Shown here: piece by piece, positions 3,208 through 57,040 of the stretch
Position numbering within the stretch: the stretch's first letter is position 1
Layout: each line of letters starts with the position of its first letter
Assembly (NCBI GenBank): GCA_963807465.1
Contig: CAWECB010000002.1
Location: forward strand, 18,167-82,166
Direction: 5' to 3'
Source of the DNA: an uncultured bacterium
GTDB taxonomy: Bacteria; Patescibacteriota; Minisyncoccia; Minisyncoccales; Minisyncoccaceae
Length of the DNA: 64,000 nucleotides
The notes under the pieces: model-generated
What the model saw: only the letters and a program-made list of their open reading frames with translations
The model's database searches: none
What the model was told of the DNA's origin: nothing
Position numbers and translations under genes: made by a program

Positions 3208-3418
3208 GCGCGTGCGGACACAAGGCCGATCGGCGACCGGGCGTGAACCCGACGCCGATCGGCGCTACAGAGAAGTCTCCGGCCGCCGAAAGTTGAGCGC
3301 CGACGCTCCTCCGCCCCGGAATGGTGCTGTTGTCCTGTCGAGTCTTGACACGGATCGTGGAGCCCCGTCACAGTCTCGATGGGCTCCGCCCGGATTTCAG
3401 AGAAAGGGGCATCCGCAG

Positions 3419-6104: not shown

Positions 6105-6110
6105 CGAAGG

Positions 6111-8540: not shown

Positions 8541-8559
8541 CCTAATCTGCTCGGCATCA

Positions 8560-9950: not shown

Positions 9951-9951
9951 C

Positions 9952-10640: not shown

Positions 10641-10652
10641 TGGCGCCGAGCA

Positions 10653-24442: not shown

Positions 24443-24754
24443 ATGTTGGCAGTAATAAAAACAGGGGGAAAGCAGTACAAAGTTACTCCCGGACAGAAGA
24501 TAAAAATAGAGAAGCTGGAGAATAATGTGGGGGACGAAGTAGTCTTCGACAGCGTACTTTTAGTAGATAATGAAAAAGAAGTTTCAATAGGAAATCCTTT
24601 GGTAAAAGGGGCTAAGGTCTTAGGAAAGGTATTGAACCAGGACAAGCACGACAAGGTCATAATCTATAAGTATAAACCCAAGAAAAGATATAGACTGAAA
24701 AAGGGCCACAGACAGCCCTTTACGGAAGTAGAAATCGTAAAGATAGAAAACTAG
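24443..24754 (+). CDS. rplU: 50S ribosomal protein L21
   Basis: MLAVIKTGGKQYKVTPGQKIKIEKL...YKPKKRYRLKKGHRQPFTEVEI is canonical L21. Confidence 0.9.
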   Translation: MLAVIKTGGKQYKVTPGQKIKIEKLENNVGDEVVFDSVLLVDNEKEVSIGNPLVKGAKVLGKVLNQDKHDKVIIYKYKPKKRYRLKKGHRQPFTEVEIVKIEN

Positions 24755-32624: not shown

Positions 32625-33716
32625 ATGGCAACAAAATCTTTAAATACGGGTCTCAAGAAAGCGGGCGTAGCAAAAAAAGACGAATTTTATACGCAACTTG
32701 TCGATATTGAGAAAGAGATAAAACACTACAAAGATCAGTTCCGCGGTAAAGTTGTTTACTGCAACTGTGACGATCCGTTTGAGAGCAATTTCTTCAAATA
32801 TTTTGCCGCCAACTTTAAAGCACTTGGATTGAAGAAACTTATCACAACGAGCTATGTGAAATCGCCGATTGCTGGAAAACAAATACCGTTGTTTGAGATG
32901 GAGGGACTTAAGCCAGACGGCAAAGAGCCGTACGTGGTGGAGATAAATGAAGTACCGGATATTAACAACGACGGCGCGATAAGTTTGGAAGATGTCGAGG
33001 CACTACTTAGACGTAATAAAAAATCATCTCGGAAATTACAGGGTAACGGCGATTTCCGAAGTGAAGAATGTATTGAATTACTCAAAGAAGCTGACGTTGT
33101 GGTCACGAATCCTCCATTTTCACTCTTTCGTGAATATATTGCCCAGCTTGTCGAATACAATAAGAAGTTTCTGATTATCGGTAATGTAAATGCGATTACT
33201 TACAAGGAATCTTTTAAGCTTATAAAAGATAATAAAATGTGGCTCGGTGCCAGTATTCATAGTGGCGACCGTGAGTTTCGTGTGCCTGACCACTACCCAC
33301 TTGAGGCCGCAGGGTTTCGTGTAGACGAAAAAGGTAATAAATACATTCGCGTCAAAGGGGTGCGCTGGTTTACCAATCTCGATTATGAAGAACGCCACGA
33401 AAATTTAATATTATATAGGAAATATTCATCTAATGAATATCCAAAATACGACAACTATGATGCGATTGAAGTCTCCAAAACCGCAGATATTCCCATGAAT
33501 TATAGAGACGCTATGGGTGTGCCGATTACGTTTCTTGATAAATATAATCCCGAACAGTTTGAGATATTGGGTCTAGCAAATGACAAGAGGGAAATAGATA
33601 AAGCGTTCATACAAGGCAACGAATTTAATTTAGATGAGCAACACAAAAGATTTGTGGGTATGGTATTAAATAAAAAGGCTACTTATGCACGTATTTTAAT
33701 TAAACAAAAAAAGTAA
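32625..33716 (+). CDS. N6-adenine DNA methyltransferase, EcoRI-methylase-like family
   Basis: N-terminus KKDEFYTQLVDIEKEIKHYKDQFRGKVVYCNCDDPFESNFFKYF and catalytic VVTNPPFSLFREY (NPPF motif). Confidence 0.8.
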   Translation: MATKSLNTGLKKAGVAKKDEFYTQLVDIEKEIKHYKDQFRGKVVYCNCDDPFESNFFKYFAANFKALGLKKLITTSYVKSPIAGKQIPLFEMEGLKPDGKEPYVVEINEVPDINNDGAISLEDVEALLRRNKKSSRKLQGNGDFRSEECIELLKEADVVVTNPPFSLFREYIAQLVEYNKKFLIIGNVNAITYKESFKLIKDNKMWLGASIHSGDREFRVPDHYPLEAAGFRVDEKGNKYIRVKGVRWFTNLDYEERHENLILYRKYSSNEYPKYDNYDAIEVSKTADIPMNYRDAMGVPITFLDKYNPEQFEILGLANDKREIDKAFIQGNEFNLDEQHKRFVGMVLNKKATYARILIKQKK

Positions 33717-33717
33717 T

Positions 33718-34809
33718 ATGAAAATCGATCTACAAAAAATTAAAATCCGAAAAGTCGTTACTGGCTACAAAGACAGTGCTGAAGAAGGTGTGGTGGCCTA
33801 TGGTGGTAAGCTGGATATTCGGCCAAAATATCAGCGTGAATTTGTGTACAAGGAAAAACAGCGCGATGCAGTGATAGAAACTGTTAAAAAGGGTTTTCCG
33901 TTGAATGTGATGTATTGGATGATTAGAGATGATGGTGGCTACGAAGTGCTGGATGGACAACAGCGCACTATTAGCATTGGGCAATATGTTACTGGTGATT
34001 TTTCCATGAATAATCGCTTTTTCCATAATTTAACCAAAGAGGAGCAGGATAAAATTTTGGATTATGAACTGATGATTTATCTTTGTGAAGGCACCGATAA
34101 AGAGCGAATCGATTGGTTTACGGTCATAAATACATACGGAGAAAAGGTGAACGAGCAAGAAATTCGCAATGCGGTATATACCGGCCCGTGGCTTTCTGAT
34201 GCAAAACTCAAATTCAGCAAATCGAACTGCGCGGCATATCTCTTGGCGAATGATGGTGGACAGTTGGTCAGTGGCTCGCCAATCAGACAGGAGTATTTAG
34301 AGACAGCGCTTTCGTGGATTAACGACGGCAAGATCGAGGACTATATGGCCAAGCACCAGCATGATAAAGATGCTAACGAGCTGTGGGAATATTTCCAAAA
34401 AGTTATTGAATGGGCAAGAAAAACTTTTCCCAATTATCGCCGCGAGATGAGCGGTGTATCGTGGGGCGAGCTGTATAACGAGTTCAAAGGCAAAAAATTC
34501 GATTCAAAGAAATTGGAAAAGGAAATAACCGAGTTGATGCAAGACGAAGATGTAACTAAAAAATCAGGCATCTACGAATATGTTTTGAATGGCAGTGAAA
34601 GGGCGTTGAACATTCGTGCCTTTACGGACAAACAAAAGAGAGAGGCGTATGAAAGTCAAAAAGGCATTTGCGCAAAATGTAAAAAGCATTTTGAGATAGA
34701 AGAAATGGAAGCAGATCATATCAAACCTTGGCATGAGGGCGGAAAAACAATTGCTACAAATTGTAAGATGTTATGTAAACAGGATAACAGGACTAAATCC
34801 GGGAAATAA
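33718..34809 (+). CDS. DUF262 (ParB/GmrS-like) domain protein with C-terminal HNH endonuclease
   Basis: IRPKYQREFVY and LDGQQRTISIGQY are DUF262 signatures. The C-terminus CAKCKKHFEIEEMEADHIKPWHEGGKTIATNCKMLCKQDNRTK is an HNH motif. The start is 1 nt after the MTase stop. Confidence 0.85.
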   Translation: MKIDLQKIKIRKVVTGYKDSAEEGVVAYGGKLDIRPKYQREFVYKEKQRDAVIETVKKGFPLNVMYWMIRDDGGYEVLDGQQRTISIGQYVTGDFSMNNRFFHNLTKEEQDKILDYELMIYLCEGTDKERIDWFTVINTYGEKVNEQEIRNAVYTGPWLSDAKLKFSKSNCAAYLLANDGGQLVSGSPIRQEYLETALSWINDGKIEDYMAKHQHDKDANELWEYFQKVIEWARKTFPNYRREMSGVSWGELYNEFKGKKFDSKKLEKEITELMQDEDVTKKSGIYEYVLNGSERALNIRAFTDKQKREAYESQKGICAKCKKHFEIEEMEADHIKPWHEGGKTIATNCKMLCKQDNRTKSGK

Positions 34810-34830
34810 CCACATTGAATGTAAAAATTT

Positions 34831-37392
34831 ATGGAAGATAGTAGAACACCATTCGTAAAAGAAGTTGCAAAGACCATCACCGAACGTCACGGGAACGAGA
34901 GCGGGTCTTTTATCTTTGGCATATCTGGTAAATGGGGTGAAGGCAAAACTCGTTTTTTAGATGAATTAAAGGAAATTTTAGAAAAAGACAATTCACCGTT
35001 CAAAGTTGTTGATATAAATCCATGGAAATTCTCTGTCGATAGAATCTCTTTTTTAAGAAATTTTCTACGCACCTTATACGGAAAGTGCGGTTCGGAGAAC
35101 GAGAATGATTTAAAACAGTTGGATGTCGACACATCAGAAAATGCAATCGATTGGGGGCGTTTTGCAAAATTCGTTGTATTACTTGCGATTATTTGTTTGG
35201 CTTTTACTTATACCCCTCTTTTTAATTTCGTTGTCAGTCTCCCTGCGCAATGGCAATTTTTTCTTACCGTTCTATTTCTTCCAATAGTTTTAGCTGCTAT
35301 TCAAAGTGTGGTTACGGTTCAAAAGACGGATCACGCTATCGTAACTCTAGATAAATTCGACGATCTACTTGGGGAAATACTAATAAAATTTAAGGCAGCA
35401 GAGAAAAAAATTATTGTCTTTGTGGATGATCTTGATCGCGTAACTCCAGAAATGGCAAGAGATGTTTTAGATAATCTCCGTACATTCTTTGATAAAAAGG
35501 AAATTACGTTTGTTGTGACGGGCGATCATACAGTACTCGAAGGCCATCTCGGAAGAAGTTTATTGCCTGACGAAGAATCTTCCGCCGCTCAACTCGAGGA
35601 AGGGCGAAGATTTATGAAAAAAATTTTTAACGTATACTGGCGCCTACCGCTACCAATCAAGAAGGAACTTCAAGATTTTATTAAAGGTGAGTTCCAAAAG
35701 AAGGAGGCGGGGCTGAAAGAAGTATTTTCAGAAGAAAACCAGAAAACTACTTTTGCTATATATTTGGAGAAATATTTTGAAAGCAACTTTAGGCAAATAA
35801 TTCGATTTTTGGACACAGTTCTCTTCAACTTCCAAATCATAAAACAAAAAGCTGAGAGTGAAGATGCGCAACAAGCGCCATACTTTAAAGATATGTTAGC
35901 CAATCCGTTGCTTGTGGTGCGGATCCTTATGATTCAAGAGTTATGCGCCCCTCTTTTTGATAAAATGGTCAGAGATGTTTCTATCTTGCAGGGGCTTGAA
36001 TACGCAGTTGAGAAAAAGGATTCTTCCAAAATAAGTGGAATTTTCGAACAAAGCAAAGATGTTCTTTCTCCTAGTCAACGAGCTTTCATGGAAAAGTTTA
36101 TTTATGAAGAACCCCATTTTTATAAAGCTTCTCAGTTACAGGTTTTAAATCTCCAGCCGTATCTTTCATTAGCCGCTGATGTGAGTTTTGGCGATCAAAG
36201 AGGTCCATCAAGTGAGGATTTTATGGCAACACTAAATGGAGGTGATCCAAAGGCTGTCAAAAACGATCTCCTTTCTATGGGTGACGTCAAGGCACAGGAT
36301 GGAGCAAATGCCTTAGCGACCGCATTACCTTCAATAACTGATATAACGCAAAAGCAATCCGCGCTTAAGACACTCCTTACTGCTTTATCTGATTCACCTG
36401 CAGAGTTAACGATACATAAAATTTTTGCTAAGAAGTTAGCTGAACTCGATTACAGTTTTGTAAATGATGCTGCCTCTAATCTGAAAATGGATATTCTCAA
36501 CCCCTTTTTCCATTGGCTTGATCTTATCGCCGACATTGAAACAACGAAATTATTTAAGGATAAATTCACCCTAAGAGACCCTGCTGAGTTCAACGCCACG
36601 ATCAGTGAAAATGCAGGCTCTTTTAAAAGCTTAGTATTAGCGAAGTGGTTAAAAGATTACTACCCAACAAATAAACCCGAGGCTATAGCTTTGATGATCC
36701 AGCATTTTCCGAAACTAAAAATCGAGCAGGTATGCGAGCAGATGGATCTTGTTAGCGACTCTCTTATCGCAGACATCATCGGAGACGCGAATGCTCAGCT
36801 AAGAGAAAATCGGTCGGAGTTGCTGAAAGGCTATACGACAAAGGGTGTGGCAGATCTAAAGAAAAACATACTTGATCAAGTTTCCAATCTTGATCAAGGA
36901 ATTACTGCTTGGGCTATCACGAAAGCAAATGAAGAAAAACCTTTTTGGTCCAGAACTGAAATCGAATTACGAGTTCTTGTAAAGATTGATGAATCTACGG
37001 ATTTTAACACTCTTAGTCAGGGGTTACGATTTGCAATTGCCAATAACATCGGCACCCCGGAAACTATTTGGCCGAAGCTGATGCCCAAGCATAAAGACTT
37101 ACTCATTGAAAACCTGCCAACCATCGTCGATGACGCATCTTTTCAAGCCATTGCGCCTCTCCAAGCTTATGCGAATCAGCTTATGGACGCAGTTGTGGAT
37201 AAAGTTAAGGCAGTTCCGGAAACCGATCAAGCTCGTTGGCTTGGCTATATCGTAAAAGGTAAGTGGCTTTGGGTTAACCTCACCAAATATCCTATTGCAA
37301 GTAAGTTTAGGAGTTTGAAGAAGTCAAAAGATGATGGTATCAAGCAGGCGTTAAGTAGTGCCGAAGAAAGTTGGAAAGAAAAAGTATCTTAG
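34831..37392 (+). CDS. KAP-family P-loop NTPase with two transmembrane helices inserted in the NTPase domain
   Basis: Walker A GISGKWGEGKTRF, TM pair FVVLLAIICLAFTYTPLF / FFLTVLFLPIVLAAIQSVV, Walker B KKIIVFVDDLDRV, then about 600 aa of uncharacterised C-terminal sequence. Confidence 0.85.
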   Translation: MEDSRTPFVKEVAKTITERHGNESGSFIFGISGKWGEGKTRFLDELKEILEKDNSPFKVVDINPWKFSVDRISFLRNFLRTLYGKCGSENENDLKQLDVDTSENAIDWGRFAKFVVLLAIICLAFTYTPLFNFVVSLPAQWQFFLTVLFLPIVLAAIQSVVTVQKTDHAIVTLDKFDDLLGEILIKFKAAEKKIIVFVDDLDRVTPEMARDVLDNLRTFFDKKEITFVVTGDHTVLEGHLGRSLLPDEESSAAQLEEGRRFMKKIFNVYWRLPLPIKKELQDFIKGEFQKKEAGLKEVFSEENQKTTFAIYLEKYFESNFRQIIRFLDTVLFNFQIIKQKAESEDAQQAPYFKDMLANPLLVVRILMIQELCAPLFDKMVRDVSILQGLEYAVEKKDSSKISGIFEQSKDVLSPSQRAFMEKFIYEEPHFYKASQLQVLNLQPYLSLAADVSFGDQRGPSSEDFMATLNGGDPKAVKNDLLSMGDVKAQDGANALATALPSITDITQKQSALKTLLTALSDSPAELTIHKIFAKKLAELDYSFVNDAASNLKMDILNPFFHWLDLIADIETTKLFKDKFTLRDPAEFNATISENAGSFKSLVLAKWLKDYYPTNKPEAIALMIQHFPKLKIEQVCEQMDLVSDSLIADIIGDANAQLRENRSELLKGYTTKGVADLKKNILDQVSNLDQGITAWAITKANEEKPFWSRTEIELRVLVKIDESTDFNTLSQGLRFAIANNIGTPETIWPKLMPKHKDLLIENLPTIVDDASFQAIAPLQAYANQLMDAVVDKVKAVPETDQARWLGYIVKGKWLWVNLTKYPIASKFRSLKKSKDDGIKQALSSAEESWKEKVS

Positions 37393-37402
37393 TTTAAATT
37401 GA

Positions 37403-38740
37403 TTAATTTTGAACTGACAACTTTTTATCTCTTAAAATTAATTTATTCTTGACGCATCCGAGTAGTTCTCGTTTCTCCTCCATTGTTCCTCCGTTCAGCA
37501 CGTGAGTCGCGTACCGCTTTGCGTCAAAGTCTTTCTCAAGAGCACCCTTATCGTGAATATTAAGGAACGCTTTTTGAAATTTGGCCATTCGCTTGTATTC
37601 TTCATCGAACTTCTTTTTTATAATTCCCTCATTCATCTCTAAATTTCCGATGACTGCCACTAGTTGTTTAATGACTTCCTCTTCTCTGATATAACCTTCT
37701 TTACACTGTAGGTTTCTCGATCGGTTACAGCCATAATAGACATAATGAGCCATATCGCCGCTGGCAAGTTTTTTGTATTTATCTTCTGCCGTCACTCCTG
37801 ATCCACAGCGTCCACAAGTCATCATCCGCGAAAATGCGAATTGTTTGTCGATAAATTTTATCTCTGAACGCTTGAGTTGCTCTCGAGCCTTTTCAAAAAC
37901 TTCTCTCGTAATGAGCGGCGTATGTTGTCCTTTGTACCAATTTCCGCTACCCATCGGATATTCAAATGTTCCGTAAAAGAAAGGTGTTTGCAGTAAGCGA
38001 TAAATATTACTCAACGTCAGCGGTTTATTACTCGTCGCACTTCGGAAGTTCATTTCGAATTTCAGCCAATGATATATTTTTCTGCCACTCCAGCCTTCAA
38101 AAGCCACCTTCTCAAACATCTGTTTCATTACAGGGCCACGTTCAGGATCAACCATTACATATCCTTTTCTGTCGATTCGTTTTTCATTTAAATATCCTGT
38201 TGGAGCCGGAGCTGGCCACAGCCCCATCTCACAACGCATTCGGAGTCCTCTTTTTACATTCACACTTTTGTTGTCATTTTCCAATTTCGCCTGACTACAG
38301 AGAATCATCAGTAGAAATTTTTCGTTTGGATTATTCGTGAATTTTTGCCCGAATGTTTTAATCTCATATAAAAGTTTCTGATCCATGAGATCGACTAGCG
38401 AACCCAAGTCTCCGGCATTTCTCGAAAGACGATCGGGTGCCCAAGTTAGGATTCCTGTATATCGTCCACTTCGGATGTCAGCGAGAATTTCAGTAAAGAC
38501 CGGACGCTGTCCCGAATCTTTTGCCGAATGCGACTCTCTCCGGATATCGACGATCTCTAGTCCGTCACGCTCGGCAAGTTGAAGCATCTCTTTAATTTGG
38601 CTCTCAATAGAGAGGACTTGGCGTTCTTCGCTCTCGGTTGATTTACGCGCGTAAAGGCAATATTTGACCTTTACCGGAGGCTCAATTGGCTTTGGGGTCT
38701 GAGCCTCCACCGACCCTATTGGTGGTTGTTGATTTCTCAT
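37403..38740 (-). CDS. large serine recombinase (resolvase/invertase N-domain + recombinase domain + zinc ribbon)
   Basis: YCLYARKSTESEERQVLSIESQ is the catalytic Ser region. Also present are LTWAPDRLSRN, CGRCGSGVT...YVYYGC and a coiled-coil tail. ATG 38740 is preferred over TTG 38761. The gene is convergent, with its stop 10 nt from the KAP gene stop. Confidence 0.85.
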   Translation of the reverse strand: MRNQQPPIGSVEAQTPKPIEPPVKVKYCLYARKSTESEERQVLSIESQIKEMLQLAERDGLEIVDIRRESHSAKDSGQRPVFTEILADIRSGRYTGILTWAPDRLSRNAGDLGSLVDLMDQKLLYEIKTFGQKFTNNPNEKFLLMILCSQAKLENDNKSVNVKRGLRMRCEMGLWPAPAPTGYLNEKRIDRKGYVMVDPERGPVMKQMFEKVAFEGWSGRKIYHWLKFEMNFRSATSNKPLTLSNIYRLLQTPFFYGTFEYPMGSGNWYKGQHTPLITREVFEKAREQLKRSEIKFIDKQFAFSRMMTCGRCGSGVTAEDKYKKLASGDMAHYVYYGCNRSRNLQCKEGYIREEEVIKQLVAVIGNLEMNEGIIKKKFDEEYKRMAKFQKAFLNIHDKGALEKDFDAKRYATHVLNGGTMEEKRELLGCVKNKLILRDKKLSVQN

Positions 38741-38930
38741 ACAACTCAAGTAATGCCGCAACCCTCTTGGGTAGTCCAGGCCAGAAAAGGAGGTAAACTG
38801 TTGGTAACTTTTTATCGCTGAAAACCCAACAATCCATTGTCAGGGCTTAAAAATTTTGATATCATTGAAAATGACAACTGAATAATAGAGACGGCCTAAA
38901 CCAGATATTTTATTTGGCATGGCCAAAAGA

Positions 38931-47807: not shown

Positions 47808-49304
47808 TTGACGAAAACCATCACAAATTTTAAATGGCTGGTATTGCTTACTGTAATTATCGGAACTTTTTTAGGCAGATTAGACCAGACAATTGTAAAC
47901 TTGGCTCTGCCAAAAATAATTGAAGATTTTAAAATTACAGTTACCGCAGCCGGCTGGATTGCAACCGCGTACATATTAGCTAACGCGGTTTTTGTTCCTA
48001 TTTGGGGAAAATTAGGAGACACTGTCGGCAGAAAAAAAATTTATATTTTAGGTTTTTCAATTTTTATTTTTGGTTCGGCTTTGGCTGGATTTGCATGGAA
48101 TTTAAGTTCCATGATTGTTTTCAGAATTATTCAGGCAATTGCAAGTTCTGCTGATTATCCGACAGCCATGGCAATTTTGGCGGTAACTTTCAAGCAGGGA
48201 AAAGAAAGGGCGCAGGCATTGGGTTTATGGTCGGTTTCTTTTGCCGCGGCTGCTGTTTTTGGTCCGTTAATCGGCGGGCCGATGATTGATATTTTCGGCT
48301 GGAGGTCAATATTTTTATTAAATATTCCGGTTGGAATTGTTGGCTTAATTATGGCTTTTATTTTTGTCAGAGAATCTGTTTCAGAACACAAAACAATACA
48401 TTTTGACTGGTGGGGCGCAATAACTCTTGGAGTTGCTCTTTCGGCATTGGTTTTGGTTCTTGACCAGGGCAATACTTGGGGCTGGTTTGCTTATCAAAGC
48501 ATAATTTGTTATATTGCACAATTTTATTTACAATTATTTTTATATTTATAGAACAAAAGCGCAAGAACCGATTGTTGACCTTAAATTTTTCAAAAATAGC
48601 GTTTTTGTAAATACTCTTATAAATAATTTCGTTGTTTTTATGGCAATGATGGGAGCCGTATTTTTGATTCCGATTTTCGTTGAAACATATTTGGGATATG
48701 ATGCCACACAAACAGGATATTTATTTATTCCAATGGCAATTTTCATGGTGATTGCTTCTCCGATAGGAGGAAGCTTAACCGGAAAAGTGCAGCCAAGATA
48801 TGTAATTTTTGCCAGCACGCTTGTGGCTGCTATCGGAATATATTATGTTTTCATATTTAGACCCAAGGTCAACGCGCCATGGACGTAATTATTCCTCTTT
48901 CAATAATGGCTTTTGGCATGGGTTTTGGCATGGCTCAACGAACATCTGTTATTGCCGCCGTTGTTCCGACCGAAGAAATGGGAGTTGCCTCATCTATATT
49001 GGCTCTTGGCAGAAATATCGCCGGAGCATTTGGAATTGCGGTTTTCGGCACAATTTTAACCAATGCAACAAACAGCAATGTTTTAAATATCGCCTATCAC
49101 AGCGTTATAAAAATTACGAATCCGGCAATTTATCAGCAGGCAATAGAATTGATTATATTAAAAGCGCAGATAGACGCATACAGGGTTGTGTTTATTTCGG
49201 CCGCGGCCGTTCTTTTGATGGGAACCGTTTTGTCTTTATTTATAAAAGTTTCCAAAGAAAAAATGCGTGAGCAGGGAGGCCAAGAATCTTTTGTTGAGGT
49301 ATAA
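47808..49304 (+). pseudogene. MFS transporter, DHA2 (EmrB/QacA) type, at least 2 frame changes
   Basis: LDQTIVNLALPKI, GKLGDTVGRKKIY, FRIIQAIASSADYPTAMAI and LIGGPMIDIFGWRSIF. TM segments continue in ORFs 48514..48888 and 48879..49304. Confidence 0.8.
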
Positions 49305-49876: not shown

Positions 49877-50183
49877 GCATTCGAACGAAGGTGTAATCCA
49901 ATGGGTTGCACCTATAGTCAGACAAGACTAATAAAATCCTGGATTGTTATAATCCTGTTTTTTTATACCCAAATTAACCTCAAAAATGTATTTTTACTTT
50001 TGTGTCAGAAAAAGCCGATGGTCTTGACAAAGTATGATAAATGATTTATTATCGTTATGTTCATAAAAATATCTTGGTTTCTTGTTTTTACACTATAATA
50101 ACTTAATAAATTACCCTGTCTAAAATTTTGCTTTGTCGCATCTCGCTAAAAAGCATTTTGATAAACTTGGTAAAATAAATATT

Positions 50184-53100
50184 ATGAAGTGTTCAATGTC
50201 TAAACTCATAAAGAGTATAAGTTTAAAGAAGCAAAGCGTGTTTTGTTTGGCCGCGTTATTAATAGTAAGCGGTTTTTTTGTATTTGCAGGAACTGCATCT
50301 GCATCTTCCAAAATAAATCAAACTATTACGGTTACCGCGCACGCTCCGGCAAGTGCGGTTTATAATTCAACTTTCGGAGTAGTGGCGACAGCGAGTTCTG
50401 GACTTTCTGTTTCTATTACAACTAGTGGTAGTTGCTCTAACGGCAACGGCTCCGCCACCATTACTATGACTAGCGGTACTGGCAATTGTATAGTTCATTA
50501 CAATCAAGCGGGTAACTCACATTACAATCCGGCTACAGAGGTTACTGAATCTATCACCGCTCAACCAAAAACCATAACCGCTAATGTTACAGCCAATGAC
50601 AAAACTTATGATGGTACAACTAATGCCACCATTGAAGACTGTAGTCTCAATGGAATTGTAAATCATGATTCTGTGACTTGTTATGTGGCAAACGGGAACG
50701 TAAATTTTAGCGATAGAAATGTTGGCAAAAATAAAACAGTAACAGCAACGAGTATTACTCTTGGCGGTTTCGATAAAAGTAATTATCAACTTTCTTCTAC
50801 AACAACTACGGCTAAAGCAGATATTACACCTTTAGCAATAACCGTAAAAGCCGATCCGCAAACTAAAACTTATGGTAACCCCGATCCAACTTTAACTTAT
50901 AAGATTACCAGTGGCTCCTTAGTCGTACCAGATACATTTACTGGCACGTTAAGTCGTAAGTCTGGCGAAAATGTCGGTTCCTACGACATTACTGAAGGCA
51001 ATCTCGCTTTGAGCAGTAACTATGATCTGAATATCATTCTTGAAGATAACTATCATTACGACATTGAACTAACGATAAACAAAGCTAATTTAACTGTTAC
51101 TGCCAACAACCAGACTAAAACTTATGGTAACCCCGATCCTTATTTTACATTCGCCTACTCCGGTTTTAAATATAATGATGGTTCAAATGTAATTGATAGG
51201 CAGCCGACTTGTTCAGTATCGGGAAATCATTCAAATGTTGGTTCTTACACTATTGCGTGCTCTGGAGGATCGGATAATAACTATAGTTTCAGCTATCTTC
51301 CTGGCACTTTGACTGTTAATAAGGCAACGGCTGTTGTTACTTTAGGCAATTTAACTCAGACATACGATGGCAAGGTAAAATCAGCGACAGCCACCACAAA
51401 TCCTGTTAATCTGACTGTTAACATAACTTACGATGGCTCTTCGACTCTTCCAATCAATGCTAAGAACTATGCTGTGGTTGCTACTGTTGATAATATAAAT
51501 TACCAAGGTTCTGCCAATGGTACATTAATAATTGGAAAAGCGAATTTAACCATTACGGCTCAGCCCAATACCAAAACTTACGATGGCACAAAAAGTTCAG
51601 CTGGTAATCCAACTGTCAGTGGCCTACAGAACAATGATAAAGCAACTGGTTTGGCGGAAACTTACGACACGGCCAATGTTGGCACAGGAAAAACGCTTTC
51701 TGTATTGGCCTATATAATTAATGATAATAATGGGGGTGCTAATTATAACGTGACAACTGTTTCTGATAAAACTGGCGTCATCAATACCCAACAAATTACA
51801 GTGACAGCCGTAACCGATACCAAAACTTACGATGGCACACCGAGCTCGTCTAAGGTACCGACCGTATCGCCAGGTTTGGTAGGAACTGATACTCCAAATT
51901 TTACGCAAACTTTTGACACTCCAGATGTTGGCACCGGAAAAAAATTGACTCCTAGTGGAACAGTAAACGATGGCAACAGCGGAAATAATTACAGTTATAA
52001 TTTTACTTCTGTTTCAACAGGTACGATTACAATTAGACCCATAACAATCACAGCCGATCCCAAATCTAAAAATTATGGTGCATCTGACCCAGCTTTAACA
52101 TATCAAATTACGAGCGATTTGAAATTGGTGCCTAGCGATACGCTTTCCGTCAATTTAACTCGTGCTCCCGGTGAAGATTTTGGTTCTTATCCAATTTTAC
52201 AAGGTACGGTTACTCTAAGTACAAATTACAGCTTAACTTATATAGGAAGTAACTTAACCATTGGCACCGCAACAATCACGGTTATAGCCGATGCTCAAAG
52301 CAAAACTTATGGGGCCGCAGACCCGACAACATTAACTTATACTTTCAGTCCTGCATTACAAAGCGGGGATAGTTTTAGCGGGGCACTAGACCGTGTGTCT
52401 GGTGATAACGTTGGCACTTATGCTATAGGTTTAGGAACCCTTACGGCCGGATCAAATTATACTATATCTTTTACCAGCGCTAATTTAAAAATCAACAGCG
52501 CCGATCAAACTATTACTTTTAGCGCCTTACCAACCAAAACCTATGGCGATGCTGATTTTCCCGTCAGTGCAACTGCTAGTTCGGGATTACCAGTTGCTTT
52601 CACTGCTTCTCCTTTAGAAGTTTGTACTGTTTCTAGTAATACAGTTCATATAGTTGGAGCGGATGACTGCACAATTACTGCCTCTCGGGCTGGCAATAAC
52701 AACTACAACCCAGCGACTGATGTTCTTCAATCATTTACGATAAATAAAAAGATAGCAACTGTTACTTTAGATAATTTAGCTCAGACATACGATGGTACTT
52801 CGAAGTCGGCAATCGCAACTACCGATCCGTCCAAACTAACTGTTGATTTTACTTATGACGGCTCCTCAACGCCTCCAACCAACGCTGGTAGTTATGCTGT
52901 TGTTGGTACAGTAAATGACGTTAATTACACTGGTAGTGCTAGTGGTACACTTGTTATTGGTAAAGTAAATTTAACTGTTACTGGCATTACGGCAGACAGT
53001 AAAACTTACGATGGCACAACAAATGCCACGCTTAATGTTGGCAGTCCTACGCTCGTTGGCGTTATCAATGAAGACGCAGTAACTCTTAATACCGCAAGTG

Positions 53101-53942
53101 CGTCAGGAGCATTCGCTGATAAAAATGTTGATACAGGGAAAACAGTAAATATTTCTGGGTTAACCTTAGATGGTTCTAAAAAAGATAATTACATACTTAC
53201 TCAACCTACCACTACAGCAGATATTACAGCTTTAGCAATAGCCGTAACCGCGACAACCGATACCAAAACTTACGATGGCACACCGAGCTCGTCTAAGGTA
53301 CCGACCGTATCGCCAGGTTTGGTAGGAACTGATACTTCGAATTTTACGCAAACTTTTGACACTCCAGATGTTGGCACCGGTAAGACATTGGCGCCAGCCG
53401 GAACAGTGAGCGACAGCAATGGTGGAAATAATTACGCTGTGACTTTTGTTCCAGTTACAACAGGTGTTATTAACGCGCAGCAAACAACCAACGTGCAACA
53501 AACAACTAATATCGGCGGAGGAGGCGAGAATTATTATTCAATTAACGCTTCAGCTGGAGCAAACGGTTCCATAAACCCGGGTTCAACGTCTATAATTAAT
53601 GAAGGAAACCAAACATACACTATTACTCCGGCTACCGGCTATCAAGTTGCTGATGTGCTAGTTGACGGTGTTTCTAAAGGAGCAATAACAACTTATACTT
53701 TTAGTAATATTAGCGCCAACCACACAATTTCAGCGACATTCTCACCAATAATTACAGCGCAGACACCAACGGTAAAAATTGTTGGTGATATAAACGGCGA
53801 CGGTGTTGTTGATGAGTATGACTTCGCCATAATGATGTCTCAATGGAATCAGACTGGCTCTAATCTTTCTGCTGATTTGAATAACGACGGTGTTGTTGAT
53901 GAGTATGATCTCTCATTGTTAATGGCTAATTGGAGTTTATAA
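50184..53942 (+). CDS. giant secreted surface protein: MBG-type (YDG/YG) repeat array, InlB-B-repeat-like domain, C-terminal dockerin pair
   Basis: Signal peptide SVFCLAALLIVSGFFVFAGTASA and more than 12 repeats of the KTYDGT / KTYGxxDP..NVGSY type. The C-terminus carries GDINGDGVVDEYDFAIMMSQW and ADLNNDGVVDEYDLSLLMANW, which are Ca-binding dockerin repeats. Confidence 0.8.
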   Translation: MKCSMSKLIKSISLKKQSVFCLAALLIVSGFFVFAGTASASSKINQTITVTAHAPASAVYNSTFGVVATASSGLSVSITTSGSCSNGNGSATITMTSGTGNCIVHYNQAGNSHYNPATEVTESITAQPKTITANVTANDKTYDGTTNATIEDCSLNGIVNHDSVTCYVANGNVNFSDRNVGKNKTVTATSITLGGFDKSNYQLSSTTTTAKADITPLAITVKADPQTKTYGNPDPTLTYKITSGSLVVPDTFTGTLSRKSGENVGSYDITEGNLALSSNYDLNIILEDNYHYDIELTINKANLTVTANNQTKTYGNPDPYFTFAYSGFKYNDGSNVIDRQPTCSVSGNHSNVGSYTIACSGGSDNNYSFSYLPGTLTVNKATAVVTLGNLTQTYDGKVKSATATTNPVNLTVNITYDGSSTLPINAKNYAVVATVDNINYQGSANGTLIIGKANLTITAQPNTKTYDGTKSSAGNPTVSGLQNNDKATGLAETYDTANVGTGKTLSVLAYIINDNNGGANYNVTTVSDKTGVINTQQITVTAVTDTKTYDGTPSSSKVPTVSPGLVGTDTPNFTQTFDTPDVGTGKKLTPSGTVNDGNSGNNYSYNFTSVSTGTITIRPITITADPKSKNYGASDPALTYQITSDLKLVPSDTLSVNLTRAPGEDFGSYPILQGTVTLSTNYSLTYIGSNLTIGTATITVIADAQSKTYGAADPTTLTYTFSPALQSGDSFSGALDRVSGDNVGTYAIGLGTLTAGSNYTISFTSANLKINSADQTITFSALPTKTYGDADFPVSATASSGLPVAFTASPLEVCTVSSNTVHIVGADDCTITASRAGNNNYNPATDVLQSFTINKKIATVTLDNLAQTYDGTSKSAIATTDPSKLTVDFTYDGSSTPPTNAGSYAVVGTVNDVNYTGSASGTLVIGKVNLTVTGITADSKTYDGTTNATLNVGSPTLVGVINEDAVTLNTASASGAFADKNVDTGKTVNISGLTLDGSKKDNYILTQPTTTADITALAIAVTATTDTKTYDGTPSSSKVPTVSPGLVGTDTSNFTQTFDTPDVGTGKTLAPAGTVSDSNGGNNYAVTFVPVTTGVINAQQTTNVQQTTNIGGGGENYYSINASAGANGSINPGSTSIINEGNQTYTITPATGYQVADVLVDGVSKGAITTYTFSNISANHTISATFSPIITAQTPTVKIVGDINGDGVVDEYDFAIMMSQWNQTGSNLSADLNNDGVVDEYDLSLLMANWSL
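51812..51937 (+). repeat. 126-bp intragenic direct repeat, copy 1
   Basis: Identical to 53255-53380 except for 2 mismatches (ACTCCAAATT versus ACTTCGAATT). Confidence 0.9.
53255..53380 (+). repeat. 126-bp intragenic direct repeat, copy 2
   Basis: See copy 1. It encodes TDTKTYDGTPSSSKVPTVSPGLVGTDT(P/S)NFTQTFDTPDVGTG. Confidence 0.9.
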
Positions 53943-53969
53943 ACCAAAATAAATAATTAACACAAACCT

Positions 53970-54683
53970 ATGAAAAAAATAACTTTATTAGCATTGTTAA
54001 CTATCGTCGGGATATTAGGAGTAGGCCAAATGGTTTTTGCAGCTAGCTCAACATTGTCTGCTTTACCAGCATCGCTTAACAGTATAGTCGGCACGCCGTT
54101 TAACGTTTCGGTTCAATTAAACCCAGCAGGCAACAAGATCTGCGTTGTAAAGGGTACTATAAGCCTTAATAATTTAACTTGTCAAAACATTACCGTTGCA
54201 AGTGGTATATGGTCTCCAGTCTCCCCAACCTGCACCAATCCAAAGTTTATTTTAGGTATTCCGAAATGTACAACCGCTGTTCAGAATATTCTTTCAGTCT
54301 CTGTTAAAGGAGCTCAAGTTGGACAAGGAAAATTATCTTTTACGGAAGTTAAGGGTATAGGAACGGGGGCAGCTGTTACTTTGGCTTCACAGGACGGCGC
54401 TTATAATATAACTCCAGTTCAAGCAACTACACCTATAACTACGCCCACCGCTAATACCACTCAAAAAACTACACAGCCGACACAACAGCCAACAACCCAG
54501 CAGGTTACAACTCCGGTTCAGCAGACAAGTCAAGGGCCATCGACAACAGGACAGCAGGCTTCTCTTGCGACCACATCTCCTGCAAAAACCATTATTATAA
54601 TTGGCATTGTTCTGTTAATAATTATAATAATTGGAGGATTGTGGTATTTTATCAATAAGAAGAAAAATAATCAAAAAGTTTAA
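53970..54683 (+). CDS. cohesin-like domain protein with T/Q/P-rich linker and C-terminal membrane anchor
   Basis: Signal peptide, then a beta-rich module of about 130 aa (LPASLNSIVGTPFNVSVQLNP..GKLSFTEVKG..GAYNITP). This is followed by the linker TTPITTPTANTTQKTTQPTQQPTTQQ and a TM anchor IIIIGIVLLIIIIIGGLWYF plus KKKNNQK. The cohesin assignment rests on pattern only. Confidence 0.4.
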   Translation: MKKITLLALLTIVGILGVGQMVFAASSTLSALPASLNSIVGTPFNVSVQLNPAGNKICVVKGTISLNNLTCQNITVASGIWSPVSPTCTNPKFILGIPKCTTAVQNILSVSVKGAQVGQGKLSFTEVKGIGTGAAVTLASQDGAYNITPVQATTPITTPTANTTQKTTQPTQQPTTQQVTTPVQQTSQGPSTTGQQASLATTSPAKTIIIIGIVLLIIIIIGGLWYFINKKKNNQKV

Positions 54684-54743
54684 AATTATCATACCAGAAA
54701 GTCCCGCATTTACTGCGGGGCTTTTATTGTATATAATTAAAAT

Positions 54744-55466
54744 ATGATTAATTATTTATGCCTTTGCTTATTATATGTGATTTTCGCACTGACTCCAGTT
54801 CTTATTTGGTTAGTTTTTTATTTCAAAAAGGACATTCATCCTGAACCTAAAAGAATGATTTTAAAAGTATTTATTCTTGGAATATTGGCGGCTTGTCTTG
54901 TTGCTATTTTTGAAGTGGCTGTTCTAACAATCATTACAGAAAAATCTCTTTTGTTTGTAATTTTAGAATCGTTTTTGCTAGTTGCGCTAGTTGAAGAGAT
55001 CGCCAAGTATTTAGTGGTAAAAATCTATGTTTTCGCCAACTCCGAGCTCGATGAGCCACTTGATGTTATGCTTTATATGGTAATCTCTGCTTTAGGTTTT
55101 GCCGCATTGGAAAATATAGTTCTTTTTTTCGCCGCAGAGCATCCATATGCGATTGGAGCAGCATTACAATTCACCTTATTGAGATTTATCGGTGCAGTGT
55201 TTCTGCACACCCTAACATCGGGAGCTTTGGGATTTCTTATCGCTCTCTCTTTTTGTTCAGTAAAAAATAAAAGACTGCTTTTCCTTTCAGGATTTTTTAT
55301 CGCTATCGTTTCACACGGGTTTTATAACCTTGCCATAGCAGAACTTACTGGCTTCTGGCAGTATTTTATTCCCATAATAATCATAATTATTTTGTCGGCT
55401 TTCACTACTTTTGGGTTTGTTAAATTGAAAAAACTTAAAGGCGTATGTACAATACCTAGATGGTAA
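54744..55466 (+). CDS. PrsW-family intramembrane metalloprotease
   Basis: Polytopic protein with the EEIAKY, HTLTSGALG and HGFYN motifs. Confidence 0.8.
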   Translation: MINYLCLCLLYVIFALTPVLIWLVFYFKKDIHPEPKRMILKVFILGILAACLVAIFEVAVLTIITEKSLLFVILESFLLVALVEEIAKYLVVKIYVFANSELDEPLDVMLYMVISALGFAALENIVLFFAAEHPYAIGAALQFTLLRFIGAVFLHTLTSGALGFLIALSFCSVKNKRLLFLSGFFIAIVSHGFYNLAIAELTGFWQYFIPIIIIIILSAFTTFGFVKLKKLKGVCTIPRW

Positions 55467-56647: not shown

Positions 56648-57040
56648 ATGAAAATAGAATATAATAAAGTTATTTGGTACTTAATATTGTTGGCAATCAT
56701 CTTTTACGTCGGCACATTCATACTTGCTTTCTTTCTCAGTCAGAGGTACGAAGCAGACCAAATATTGAAAATAAAGCAAAGCCTTGAAACCAACAATGTC
56801 ATAAACTCCGTCATTTTTACCTGCGACAGCAGTAAGACTATTAACGCTATATTCTTCAAGGATAAAGTGGAATTGGGGCTAAGCGACGGAAGGAATATGC
56901 TTCTCTTACAAGCTATATCCGCTTCCGGAGCACGTTATGCCAACACCGACGAATCGTTTGTCTTCTGGAATAAGGGGGATACCGCTTTCGTGCAGGAAGG
57001 GAATAATACCACTTACGAAAACTGCGTAATAAAAAAATAA
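56648..57040 (+). CDS. MliC-like (membrane-bound lysozyme inhibitor) family protein
   Basis: N-terminal TM anchor and SGARYANTDESFVFWNKGDTAFVQEG, which resembles the MliC signature. Confidence 0.45.
   Translation: MKIEYNKVIWYLILLAIIFYVGTFILAFFLSQRYEADQILKIKQSLETNNVINSVIFTCDSSKTINAIFFKDKVELGLSDGRNMLLLQAISASGARYANTDESFVFWNKGDTAFVQEGNNTTYENCVIKK

Follow-up and report, generated by a model that had tools for sequence, protein, structure and literature searches.

Organization of the Locus

The window, i.e., the whole stretch of 64,000 nucleotides that was analysed, harbors two adjacent genes with the same orientation (Table 1). The first encodes a secreted repeat protein ending in a dockerin, here called the cargo, and the second a small membrane protein with a predicted cohesin fold, here called the anchor, whose start codon lies 27 nt downstream of the cargo stop as originally predicted. 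The intergenic spacer was searched for a terminator-like hairpin and has none, and a hairpin of this kind is located 14 nt past the anchor stop codon. In the window, the anchor is followed by a gene for a PrsW-family intramembrane protease (Pfam).

The attribution to a CPR-like genome, proposed from the sequence, is confirmed for the part of the window bearing the pair: the best named matches of the DnaB encoded at 24754–26163 are in Paceibacterota, Minisyncoccales, and Minisyncoccus archaeiphilus, and relatives of the anchor occur in MAGs of Ca. Staskawiczbacteria. Positions 1–11450 have a GC content of 56–67% and are joined to the CPR part (40% GC) at a breakpoint by which two genes are cut short; this breakpoint is 39 kb from the gene pair and has no effect on the finding.

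Table 1. Features of the cargo–anchor locus (positions in the window).
Feature	Position	Strand	Basis
Promoter-like site, TTGACA-17-TATTAT, 11/12	50024..50052	+	Consensus scan, pattern match only
Cargo gene (ATG to stop), secreted MBG/YDG-repeat adhesin-like protein with dockerin at the end, 1252 aa	50184..53942	+	ORF and Pfam
Signal-peptide-like N-terminus, MKCSMSKLIKSISLKKQSVFCLAALLIVSGFFVFAGTASA, then SS	50184..50309	+	Read from translation
Repeat body: MBG_2 (x5), MBG_3 (x2), YDG (x5)	50310..53555	+	Pfam, DNA repeat scan
Beta module directly before the dockerin	53556..53753	+	C-terminal sequence comparison
Dockerin, two repeats, reaching the C-terminus (..LLMANWSL-stop)	53784..53939	+	Dockerin_1, motif scan, DNA repeat, subtype HMM
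Intergenic spacer, 27 nt	53943..53969	+	ORF positions, hairpin scan
Anchor gene, 237 aa: signal peptide, predicted cohesin-fold domain, linker, TM helix, basic tail	53970..54683	+	ORF, alignment, AF2, Foldseek
Signal peptide, aa 1-24, MKKITLLALLTIVGILGVGQMVFA, then A	53970..54041	+	Translation; AF2 N-terminal helix aa 4-17
Predicted cohesin-fold domain, about aa 25-150	54042..54419	+	Alignment A1, AF2, Foldseek, hhalign
Low-complexity linker rich in T/Q/P (aa 151-206), predicted to be disordered	54420..54587	+	AF2 pLDDT 42-54
C-terminal TM helix (TIIIIGIVLLIIIIIGGLWYFI) and basic tail NKKKNNQKV	54588..54680	+	AF2 helix; family conservation
Terminator-like hairpin: 12-pair stem, 6 G-C, then T run	54697..54725	+	Pattern match only

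The Cargo Protein and Its Dockerin

The N-terminus of the cargo, read by eye from the translation, is characterized by a basic n-region, an 18-aa hydrophobic core, and an A-S-A site (FVFAGTASA followed by SS). An in-frame TTG at 50133 represents an alternative start, from which the protein would have 1269 aa. The body is made of repeats assigned by Pfam to MBG_2 (1.3e-62, 208.7 bits, five stretches), MBG_3 (4.8e-55, 184 bits, two copies), and YDG (7.5e-49, 164.4 bits, five copies), all of which exceed the Pfam cut-off together with Dockerin_1; the profile searches suggested for Dockerin_1 and MBG domains were thus positive. Multiple repeats of these types and a signal-peptide-like start place the cargo among the repeat surface proteins, and the names of its domains suggest that it is an adhesin. 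An internal duplication is also present, in which a segment of ~0.7 kb recurs ~1.44 kb downstream (51335–52029 and 52760–53472, 70–83% identical). The beta module preceding the dockerin gave no match when the C-terminal segment was searched against Pfam; a module of the same type occupies this position in the cargo of other loci (L001, L008, L014, L016, L020, and L021). Since nothing is C-terminal of the dockerin, the cargo appears from its sequence to lack an anchor of its own, in agreement with the secreted protein of 1250 aa that had been described; the protein is indeed large, but the label "giant" is generous for 1252 aa.

Dockerin_1 (PF00404) matches the cargo at aa 1201–1247 with 35.1 bits when the whole protein is searched and with 38.5 bits when the C-terminal segment is taken by itself (cut-off 22.9), and the local HMM of the dockerin subtype gives 106 bits. 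The "dockerin pair" of the original prediction is correct as to the two Ca-binding repeats and not as to two dockerins, the module being a single one. In particular, it has the layout of type I-like dockerins, with two tandem repeats of ~22 residues, in each of which a Ca loop resembling that of an EF-hand (D/N at positions 1, 3, 5, 9, and 12) precedes a helix. Both loops found in the motif scan are complete, namely DINGDGVVDEYD, from nt 53787 and followed by FAIMMSQW, and DLNNDGVVDEYD, from nt 53874 and followed by LSLLMANW; the repeats are 29 aa apart and are also evident in the DNA (53783–53847 and 53870–53934, 74% identical, 87 nt apart). The dockerin would bind a cohesin in a Ca-dependent manner; the evidence for this is indirect and consists of the gene pairing and the pTM of the fused model (see below). 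A homologue search by word index with a 62-aa dockerin query returned 16 short fragments only. A further motif with some resemblance to a dockerin, DINNDGAISLED at 32958, belongs to an EcoRI-type methyltransferase and was rejected; the window contains one dockerin and one cohesin-like gene only.

The Anchor Protein

The signal peptide, beta-rich module, T/Q/P linker, and C-terminal TM segment proposed for the second gene were all located, and this architecture is kept across 50 aligned homologues, TM helix and tail included; it is the layout of an anchoring scaffoldin, in which a signal peptide, one cohesin-fold domain, and a C-terminal anchoring segment succeed each other. Four cysteine residues (C58, C71, C88, and C100) are kept in at least 90% of the family (alignment A1) and the domain carries the motif PTCxxPxFxxGIPxC. 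The C-terminal helix modelled by AF2 extends over aa 205–233 (pLDDT ~90) with the TM part at aa ~207–228; owing to this helix and the basic tail, the predicted topology has the cohesin outside and the tail in the cytoplasm. Weak matches, such as those to Podoplanin, RIFIN, and FliL, were discarded, since they are all confined to the TM segment and the low-complexity linker.

The linker ends in a semi-conserved QQASLATTSPAK motif, as indicated by the family motif comparison. In many members, such a motif is located 8–12 residues before the TM and is followed by the hydrophobic stretch and the K-rich tail. Sortase signals are arranged in this way, which counts in favor of a different reading, in which the pair binds but the anchor C-terminus is a sorting signal, so that a sortase-like or other enzyme cleaves (G/Q)(Q/A)A(S/A)L(A/S) and the cohesin becomes wall-linked as the LPXTG-linked ScaE. 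The sub-threshold match to LPXTG_anchor (12.5 bits, cut-off 15.9), that to a CTERM-type S-layer model, and the adjacent PrsW-family gene point in the same direction. However, both model scores are below cut-off, neither LPXTG nor another recognised sorting motif is present, the motif is variable and missing from part of the family, and no sortase gene is seen within the window. The PrsW neighbour, moreover, is not conserved: the gene after the anchor differs in all other loci, that of L001 being unrelated, and the protease was thus also rejected as a conserved third partner. A cleaved, wall-linked anchor is, in our opinion, very improbable.

Predicted Cohesin Fold and Interaction

The beta domain of the anchor (~125 aa, all-beta over aa ~27–148) was modelled by AF2 with a pLDDT of ~97 (96–98 over aa 30–150); the model can be superimposed on solved cohesins and has their fold, a jelly-roll beta-sandwich with nine strands. 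When this model was compared with the PDB by Foldseek, cohesins occupied the first 19 places, with E from 1e-8 to 5e-6 and TM by target of 0.56–0.75, spanning type I, type III, and archaeal non-cellulosomal cohesins and including 6kgf_C (E 1.1e-8), 5n5p_A (TM 0.75, rmsd 2.8 A), 2xdh, 1g1k, and 1anu. The earliest non-cohesin match has an E of 6e-6, and the weaker matches comprise other beta-sandwiches such as the CLIPPER domain and YcnI. The cohesin-like module expected in the downstream protein is therefore predicted to have a cohesin fold.

The suggested Cohesin HMM search, on the other hand, was unsuccessful: Pfam Cohesin (PF00963, gathering score 24.1 bits) gave no match at E<=1 in the anchor or any of 50 relatives, NCBIfam likewise yielded no Cohesin match, the beta domain is without any match in Pfam and NCBIfam, phmmer and profile searches of the PDB gave no sequence match, and Pfam Cohesin is absent from the family members of odd architecture that were checked (P0143, P0147, P0202, and P0158 among them). 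As these searches are empty, the fold is visible by structure or by profile bridging only. The trimmed domain alignment of nine sequences (A2) was aligned by hhalign with that of neighbouring cohesins with 87.5% probability (E 3.6e-6) limited to the first 42 columns. In a set of 4591 ORFs, the anchor family HMM recognises L030 (27.6 bits), L051 (21.4 bits), L027 (19.7 bits), and L035 (18.0 bits); Pfam Cohesin is passed by L051 (41.4 bits) and L035 (27.2 bits) and is sub-threshold on L027 (17.8 bits) and L030 (18.3 bits).

The interaction with the dockerin was modelled by AF2 on a fused single chain composed of the cohesin, its own linker, and the dockerin, with an unpaired block alignment. The pTM was 0.70, a value that may reflect the packing of tethered domains by AF2 or the recall of cohesin-dockerin training complexes, and the pLDDT was 84–90 for the dockerin, whose helices are at 191–199 and 220–228, and ~45 for the linker. 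Since this pTM exceeds the ceiling of the cohesin alone (126/232 = 0.54), the dockerin has a low predicted error relative to the cohesin; in the model, it is confidently placed against it, in line with the interaction that had been foreseen. Submitted to Foldseek, the fused model again retrieved cohesins only, reproducing the result of the anchor domain.

Conservation of the Gene Pair

The anchor family comprises about 260 clusters at 50% identity (profile search, E<=1e-3); among the 150 clusters listed, nearly all have 220–260 aa with the domain at residues ~25–150, and the members are "hypothetical" or unnamed in the source databases. Eight of the ten reference-genome loci are labelled Ca. 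Staskawiczbacteria. Related loci were searched with A2. Twelve distinct loci were examined, and in each of them the adjacent upstream gene, separated from the anchor by ~15–45 nt, terminates with the same dockerin subtype, GD(I/A)NxDGxVDExDFxxLMxxWG...DLNxDGxVDExDxxLLMANW. The cargo domains vary from locus to locus (MBG/YDG, MBG_2+HYR, VWA+SdrD_B+LTD, prenyltransferase-like toroid, surface Ig-like, CHB_HEX_C_1/Fn3_assoc), as do the flanks (ATP synthase, ribosomal/SecY, restriction-modification island); in all pairs, these domains are binding or adhesion modules and none is a glycoside hydrolase. In the opposite direction, a dockerin-first metagenome scan found an anchor-type gene after each of the six closest dockerins having enough downstream sequence; for a seventh, L026, the anchor match is partial and lies at the contig end. 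The same scan yielded sister pairs whose anchors are Pfam-detectable cohesins. Gene pairing is thus strictly conserved with exchangeable cargo, and this survey (12/12 and 6/6) is the strongest support for the original interpretation of the pair in CPR bacteria.

Nevertheless, the anchor could be a surface protein of cohesin fold with no affinity for the adjacent dockerin, the two genes being paired for some other reason of co-expression (an export or folding helper, a spacer, a receptor for some other molecule), and the dockerin could have a glycan, a molecule of the host surface, or the cohesin of a distant gene as its partner. Another partner of this kind was speculated by Wang et al. (2023) for the Saccharibacteria dockerin protein, and PMC10633639, in which no cohesin is named, considers that a CPR dockerin protein may target glycans. 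This reading is also favored by an anchor devoid of a Cohesin assignment at the sequence level, by the weaker structural matches, some of which are cohesin-like sandwiches that serve other functions (CLIPPER 9ifr, the Cu-binding YcnI, GH123 accessory domains), and by the wider scan, in which 35 of 54 evaluable dockerin loci are without an adjacent cohesin. In contrast, those dockerins without a pair that were looked at (L025, L028, L032, L041, and L066) belong to other subtypes without the VDExD signature, whereas the pairing with the present subtype is strict even though cargo and flanks differ. Pfam-positive cohesins at the same position in the sister pairs, the distance of at least two orders of magnitude between the best cohesin and the other folds in the Foldseek search, and the pTM of the fused model also argue against a non-binding anchor, which we hold to be unlikely.

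It could also be supposed that the anchor is a promiscuous docking site similar to ScaE, shared by dockerin-tagged proteins from elsewhere that compete for one or two anchors, with adjacency marking the ancestral cargo only. In fact, the putative recognition helices are very similar among dockerins of different loci (alignment A5), where a genome has two anchors, it also has two cargo genes, whose dockerins are similar, and ScaE accepts several dockerins, such as ScaB, CttA, and others (PMC5301203). However, each anchor copy that was seen adjoins its own cargo gene, as is also the case for both copies of the two genomes that have more than one, the content of the window is limited to a single dockerin and a single cohesin-like gene, and no anchor-less dockerin of this subtype was found where the sequence extended far enough. 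A shared docking site has, accordingly, only a slight chance of being the right explanation.

A Putative Surface-Display Module

Dedicated cohesin-dockerin pairing is the reading that we prefer, and the two genes probably constitute a minimal non-cellulosomal surface-display module of a CPR bacterium of the Minisyncoccales/Staskawiczbacteria type. In this module, cargo and anchor would be transcribed as one unit, as suggested by the promoter-like site at 50024, the spacer devoid of a hairpin, and the strong hairpin at 54697, and both proteins would be exported by Sec; the C-terminal TM helix would keep the anchor in the cytoplasmic membrane with the basic tail inside, and the T/Q/P-rich stalk of ~55 residues would hold the single cohesin-fold domain off the membrane. 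The two-repeat Ca-binding dockerin at the C-terminus of the cargo would then bind the anchor cohesin domain, as a consequence of which the adhesin-like repeats would stay on the cell surface. We infer the physical binding, its Ca dependence, and the 1:1 cognate specificity of the pair, as well as the biological target of the adhesin, which is possibly the host cell because the cultured relatives are episymbionts or parasites.

A broader proposal, which we put forward as doubtful, is that this lineage-specific and sequence-invisible cohesin family acts as a universal plug socket, each copy being co-transcribed with one dockerin-tagged cargo whose heads (MBG/YDG, VWA, LTD, TSP1, laminin-G, Ig-like, toroid) recombination would exchange before a constant dockerin. 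This would be the main route by which episymbionts with little wall and a reduced genome display their adhesins for host attachment and make them diverse, possibly through a force-resistant tether like XDoc-CohE.

Significance and Comparison with Known Systems

To our knowledge, the mechanism by which CPR/Patescibacteria hold their hosts is largely obscure; their large surface proteins are mostly without annotation, and Minisyncoccus archaeiphilus, a cultured relative, parasitises an archaeon. The small cohesin-fold membrane proteins encoded beside dockerin-tagged surface proteins are concrete candidate partners for CPR dockerins; in particular, a dockerin is present in an essential Saccharibacteria protein, for which a cohesin partner was not named (PMC10633639). 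If binding is confirmed, cohesin-dockerin biology would reach TM-anchored, operonic, non-cellulosomal display in CPR bacteria, a new cohesin subfamily profile would be available for genome annotation, the cargo proteins would be prime candidates as host-recognition adhesins, and small orthogonal cohesin-dockerin pairs could serve protein-assembly engineering.

The closest known arrangement is that of Ruminococcus flavefaciens and R. champanellensis, in which CttA (X-dockerin) is held by the small ScaE (single cohesin, LPXTG-anchored), the genes belong to one sca cluster, and adhesion takes place through the complex (PMC5301203). In both cases an anchorless secreted adhesin-like protein with a C-terminal dockerin is, or here would be, held by a small anchored protein with one cohesin. 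Unlike ScaE, the anchor has a TM helix and a basic tail at its C-terminus instead of LPXTG, and its predicted cohesin, in which four cysteine residues are conserved, diverges too far to be recognised by Pfam; unlike CttA, the cargo has no X-module before its dockerin, which is symmetric and type-I-like, and carries MBG/YDG modules (or VWA, LTD, Ig-like, and others at other loci) in place of CBMs. Moreover, the host is a CPR bacterium and the context is without cellulosome, scaffoldin, or glycoside hydrolase; a window with one dockerin and one cohesin-like gene does not indicate membership in a cellulosome.

Surface cohesins that capture dockerin-bearing proteins are also represented by SdbA, OlpA, OlpB, and OlpC of Clostridium thermocellum and its relatives, in which one or a few cohesins are displayed, and the OlpC cohesin (4dh2) is among the structural matches. 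Anchoring scaffoldins of this type are attached to the wall via SLH modules and have a role in cellulosome assembly, whereas the present anchor is apparently operonic with a single cargo and has no SLH match in Pfam and no LPXTG motif. The use of cohesin and dockerin outside plant cell-wall degradation is shared with the Archaeoglobus fulgidus cohesin 2xdh and Clostridium perfringens GH84C 2w1n, which match the anchor model with E 7e-8 and 4e-6, respectively; these cohesins are detectable by sequence and belong to multi-domain enzymes or soluble proteins, in contrast to a TM-anchored single-domain protein encoded right after its cargo. Finally, the sister metagenome pairs (L024/L027/L030 and the L051, L035, L073, L039, and L097 types) share the same gene order, with a dockerin-ending gene followed after a few nt by one for a signal peptide and a cohesin. 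Several sister anchors pass Pfam Cohesin, and a C-terminal TM is often present; the sister anchors differ from the anchor of the window in being without the four-Cys signature and the PTCxxPxFxxGIPxC motif, and some carry extra modules: L051 has a dockerin of its own, L035 has FN3/PAP_N, and the L039 group has an FHA domain in the cytoplasm.

The dockerin-ending gene and its small neighbour

The largest ORF of the window encodes a protein of 1252 aa, the cargo, in which Pfam recognises MBG_2 (1.3e-62, five stretches), MBG_3 (4.8e-55) and YDG (7.5e-49), together with a Dockerin_1 domain at aa 1201–1247 that scores 35.1 bits in the whole protein (gathering score 22.9) and 38.5 bits when the C-terminal segment is searched alone. 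This dockerin is a single module of two repeats, 74% identical at the DNA level, with the D/N ligand positions complete in both loops. As read from the translation, the N-terminus is signal-peptide-like (...FVFAGTASA followed by SS) and the chain ends three residues past the second dockerin helix, so that the cargo itself lacks any means of attachment to membrane or wall, as the original prediction held. The internal duplication of ~0.7 kb, whose copies lie ~1.44 kb apart and are 70–83% identical, indicates that the MBG/YDG body grew by repeat expansion.

The next gene, which starts 27 nt past the cargo gene, encodes the small protein, here called the anchor. The promoter-like site, the lack of a hairpin between the two genes in a pattern scan and the terminator-like hairpin, all of them pattern matches, fit a bicistronic unit. 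The ORFs, the dockerin repeats, the 27-nt gap and the anchor layout, which had been described from the sequence alone, are borne out in every particular.

Features of the window and of related loci (positions refer to the window unless a locus is named)
Feature	Position (nt)	Description
GC-rich portion	1–11450	56–67% GC, vs ~40% for the remainder
Defence island	32625–38761	EcoRI-type adenine methylase, GmrSD/HNH endonuclease, KAP-family NTPase, then an opposite-strand large serine recombinase
MFS-type transporter	47808–49304	apparently split into three overlapping frames (47808–48551, 48514–48888, 48879–49304)
Promoter-like site	50024–50052	TTGACA-17-TATTAT
Alternative cargo start	50133	in-frame TTG
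Cargo gene	50184–53942	ATG to stop
Cargo duplication	51335–52029, 52760–53472	two copies
Dockerin repeat 1	from 53787	DINGDGVVDEYD-FAIMMSQW
Dockerin repeat 2	from 53874	DLNNDGVVDEYD-LSLLMANW
Anchor gene	53970–54683	237 aa
Anchor signal peptide		N-terminal, MKKITLLALLTIVGILGVGQMVFA followed by A
Anchor, remaining parts		all-beta domain, T/Q/P-rich stretch, hydrophobic helix TIIIIGIVLLIIIIIGGLWYFI, tail NKKKNNQKV
Semi-conserved anchor motif	54546–54581	QQASLATTSPAK
Terminator-like hairpin	54697–54725	12-pair G+C-rich stem and T run, 14 nt past the anchor stop
PrsW-family protease	54744–55466	intramembrane protease, directly downstream of the pair
MliC-like protein	56648–57040	membrane-tethered, lysozyme-inhibitor domain
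Locus L005, trio	1–2387	methylase, GmrSD and NTPase genes
Locus L014, P0032	5923–7065	380-aa family member
Locus L019, stub	5595–5885	dockerin-sized ORF
Locus L039, FHA protein	903–1886	post-dockerin gene
Locus L051, double-module protein	653–1330	226 aa

A probable divergent cohesin in the anchor protein

The cohesin-like character ascribed to the beta module holds for the predicted fold and not for Pfam Cohesin membership; likewise, the HMM searches matched Dockerin_1 and MBG in the cargo and left Cohesin unmatched in the small protein. Pfam and NCBIfam gave only low-complexity and transmembrane noise for the latter and no family, the PDB contained no match by sequence, either for the protein alone or for a 50-sequence profile, and none of the 50 aligned relatives matches Pfam Cohesin. 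The AlphaFold2 model built on that alignment reaches a pLDDT of 96–98 over aa ~30–150, with a disordered linker (42–54) and a confidently predicted helix at the C-terminus (aa 205–233), and it has a cohesin fold, the point on which the original prediction had been made to depend. In particular, the first 19 places in a Foldseek search of the PDB are all cohesins at 11–16% sequence identity, including CohA2 of C. acetobutylicum (6kgf, E 1.1e-8), ScaB Coh5 of R. flavefaciens (5n5p, TM 0.75, rmsd 2.8 Å), the non-cellulosomal Archaeoglobus cohesin 2xdh, and 1g1k, 2ccl and 1anu; below them, the best-ranked structure of another kind is that of the CLIPPER domain, 9ifr (E 6e-6), followed by YcnI and GH123 accessory domains at ~1e-4. 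The ranking was repeated with a second model.

Sequence bridges lead in the same direction. Among 4591 ORFs from metagenome dockerin neighbourhoods, the family HMM scores the loci L030, L051, L027 and L035 at 27.6, 21.4, 19.7 and 18.0 bits, respectively; L051 (41.4 bits) and L035 (27.2 bits) pass Pfam Cohesin, while L027 and L030 score 17.8 and 18.3 bits with it. Compared profile to profile, the family matches the neighbouring cohesins with 87.5% probability, over the first 42 columns only. On account of the structural matches and of these bridges the beta domain is treated as a highly divergent cohesin whose homology to cohesins is probable. Its signature consists of C58, C71, C88 and C100, present in at least 90% of members, and of the motif PTCxxPxFxxGIPxC.

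Recurrence of the gene pair

The main evidence for function is the recurrence of the pair. Twelve distinct loci were compared (the window, L001, L003, L005, L008, L013–L017, L019 and L020), in which anchor identity to the window protein is 46 to 67%, and in 12 of 12 the ORF immediately before the anchor gene ends in one dockerin subtype, GD(I/A)NxDGxVDExDFxxLMxxWGxxG...DLNxDGxVDExDxxLLMANW-stop. Two cases are imperfect: in L017 the first dockerin loop has decayed, and in L019, the second pair on a 594-kb Staskawiczbacteria contig, the pre-anchor ORF is a dockerin-sized stub of 61–96 aa beside an opposite-strand gene, either a remnant that has lost its cargo or a dockerin on its own. The cargo is exchangeable and comprises MBG/YDG (window, L008), MBG_2 with HYR (L017), VWA with SdrD_B and LTD (L001, L016), a prenyltransferase-like toroid (L014, L005), surface Ig-like domains (L005) and CHB_HEX_C_1/Fn3_assoc (L003). 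Since the flanks differ between loci (ATP synthase, ribosomal proteins with SecY, a restriction-modification island, prophage-like genes), simple synteny does not account for dockerin and anchor lying side by side.

The survey for recurrence in CPR genomes was also run from the dockerin side, where scanning metagenomes with the dockerin alignment gave 80 loci and added Big_13 with TSP1 and Laminin_G_3 with DUF2341 to the cargo types. The six closest dockerins whose contigs extend far enough downstream (L021, L022, L023, L024, L027, L030) are all followed by a gene for a signal peptide, a cohesin(-like) domain and a TM helix, and a seventh, L026, by a partial family match at the contig end. Over all evaluable dockerin loci a cohesin(-like) domain occurs in the next gene in 19 of 54, and the unpaired dockerins inspected are generic and without the VDExD signature. 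Among more distant downstream genes, several score above the Pfam Cohesin cut-off (L051, L035, L073, L039, L097), so the layout of a dockerin cargo followed by a membrane cohesin is wider than the window's family, which is its four-Cys, Pfam-invisible branch. The small protein might have a cohesin fold and some other role, with the dockerin binding something elsewhere; the strict, subtype-specific pairing of dockerin and anchor argues against this, as do the sister pairs with Pfam-positive cohesins.

Two variants were observed in the same scan. In another metagenomic lineage (L039, L055, L069, L076, L100) the post-dockerin(/cohesin) gene encodes a signal peptide, a Pfam-positive cohesin, a TM helix and a cytoplasmic FHA domain; an outside cohesin wired to an inside phosphothreonine-binding domain suggests transmembrane signalling on dockerin binding. 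In L051 the protein encoded directly after the dockerin gene combines a Pfam cohesin with a dockerin at its C-terminus, and could be an adaptor-like link chaining such modules.

Predicted interaction and proposed mechanism

For an interaction model, a fused chain of 232 residues was assembled from the mature cohesin domain, 40 residues of the anchor's linker and the 66 C-terminal residues of the cargo, and was supplied with an unpaired alignment of 41 cohesin and 13 dockerin rows. AlphaFold2 gave a pTM of 0.70, with pLDDT 92–98 for the cohesin, ~45 for the linker and 84–90 for the dockerin, which has its two helices. The pTM is normalised by chain length and would have a ceiling of 126/232 = 0.54 if confident relative placement were confined to the 126 residues of the cohesin; by this arithmetic 0.70 requires about 36 more residue-equivalents, of which the ~55-residue dockerin is the sole possible source, and the position of the dockerin relative to the cohesin is therefore confident in the model. 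The result is mildly supportive of an interaction, as AlphaFold2 may favour the packing of tethered domains or recall cohesin-dockerin complexes from training.

In the proposed mechanism both proteins would be exported by Sec, the anchor would stay membrane-bound, its K-rich tail on the inner side and its cohesin raised on a stalk of ~55 aa, and Ca-dependent binding of the cargo dockerin would hold the MBG/YDG repeats at the surface. The recognition positions are near-identical in both dockerin repeats (E-Y after each loop), a weak hint at dual binding as in symmetric type I dockerins. The window contains exactly one dockerin gene and one cohesin-like gene; alternatively to a 1:1 partner, the anchor may be a promiscuous shared dock. 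It is likely that the two proteins bind each other, while a role of the pair in host attachment is doubtful: binding of the cargo to a host cell is a speculative idea, drawn only from the domain types and the lifestyle of cultured relatives.

The anchor C-terminus might instead be a cleavable sorting signal. Many relatives carry a semi-conserved (G/Q)(Q/A)A(S/A)L(A/S) 8–12 residues ahead of the TM helix, a possible signal for sorting or processing of an unrecognised type, and LPXTG-type matches occur below threshold; against retention in the membrane being replaced by such processing, the region is without any known motif and no conserved processing enzyme lies nearby. The PrsW-family protease was considered as a conserved partner and rejected, as it is not conserved in other loci.

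Family distribution and genomic context

A word-index search found 52 relatives of the anchor, mostly of 220–260 aa and with the same architecture, the named ones being annotated as hypothetical proteins, with source MAGs assigned to Patescibacteria or Ca. Staskawiczbacteria. When 1.84 billion representatives were searched exhaustively with a profile, 260 clusters matched at E≤1e-3, of which 209 also reached E≤1e-10; among the 150 clusters listed, nearly all are ~240-aa proteins with the domain at residues ~25–150, and the few longer members have other surface modules and no Pfam Cohesin. Among GTDB species representatives 8 of 10 loci bear the Ca. Staskawiczbacteria label, and two genomes have two copies each; contig CAVXIE010000002.1, for instance, carries two anchor/cargo pairs. 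The best named matches of the window's DnaB (Paceibacterota, Minisyncoccales, Nealsonbacteria, and Minisyncoccus archaeiphilus at 74% identity) place the pair in a Parcubacteria-type CPR genome, in agreement with the CPR-like origin first proposed. A DUF4430 association recurs: past its TM helix P0032 has a second hydrophobic segment and DUF4430, and in L005 DUF4430 is encoded by a gene of its own, two genes upstream of the anchor gene.

The methylase-GmrSD-NTPase trio of the window's defence island is found in the Staskawiczbacteria locus L005 directly upstream of the pair, so surface-protein modules may sit in variable genomic regions. The split MFS-type transporter is either a pseudogene or due to sequencing frameshifts, and the MliC-like protein, further downstream of the pair, is unusual for a CPR bacterium. 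The junction at ~11450 cuts two genes, both missing the N-terminus: a frameshifted UDP-GlcNAc 2-epimerase gene on the minus strand and msrB on the plus strand. From 11451 on, the window agrees exactly with L101, an independent Logan contig, in which the msrB frame continues upstream in different sequence. The join is probably a chimeric assembly or two spliced sources, not one genome.

Comparison with known systems

The closest known system is CttA-ScaE of Ruminococcus flavefaciens, in which a substrate-binding protein that lacks an anchor and ends in an (X-)dockerin is bound by the single cohesin of ScaE, a small surface-anchored protein of the same gene cluster, and the complex mediates adhesion (PMC5301203). 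In contrast, the window anchor has a TM helix in place of LPXTG or SLH, its cohesin is four-Cys and Pfam-invisible, the dockerin lacks an X-module, the cargo is of adhesion type and not made of CBMs, there is no cellulosome, and the hosts are CPR bacteria. Cohesins outside cellulosomes are known in Archaeoglobus and C. perfringens, and the anchor model matches both in structure. The searchable literature yielded no description of a cohesin that partners CPR dockerins; a dockerin-domain protein is among the essential envelope proteins of a Saccharibacterium, for which glycan targeting was suggested (Wang et al. 2023, PMC10633639). The evidence supports a pair of an already known kind, cohesin-dockerin surface anchoring, in which the new elements are a cohesin subfamily that had gone unrecognised and a conserved module of two genes whose cargo is exchangeable.
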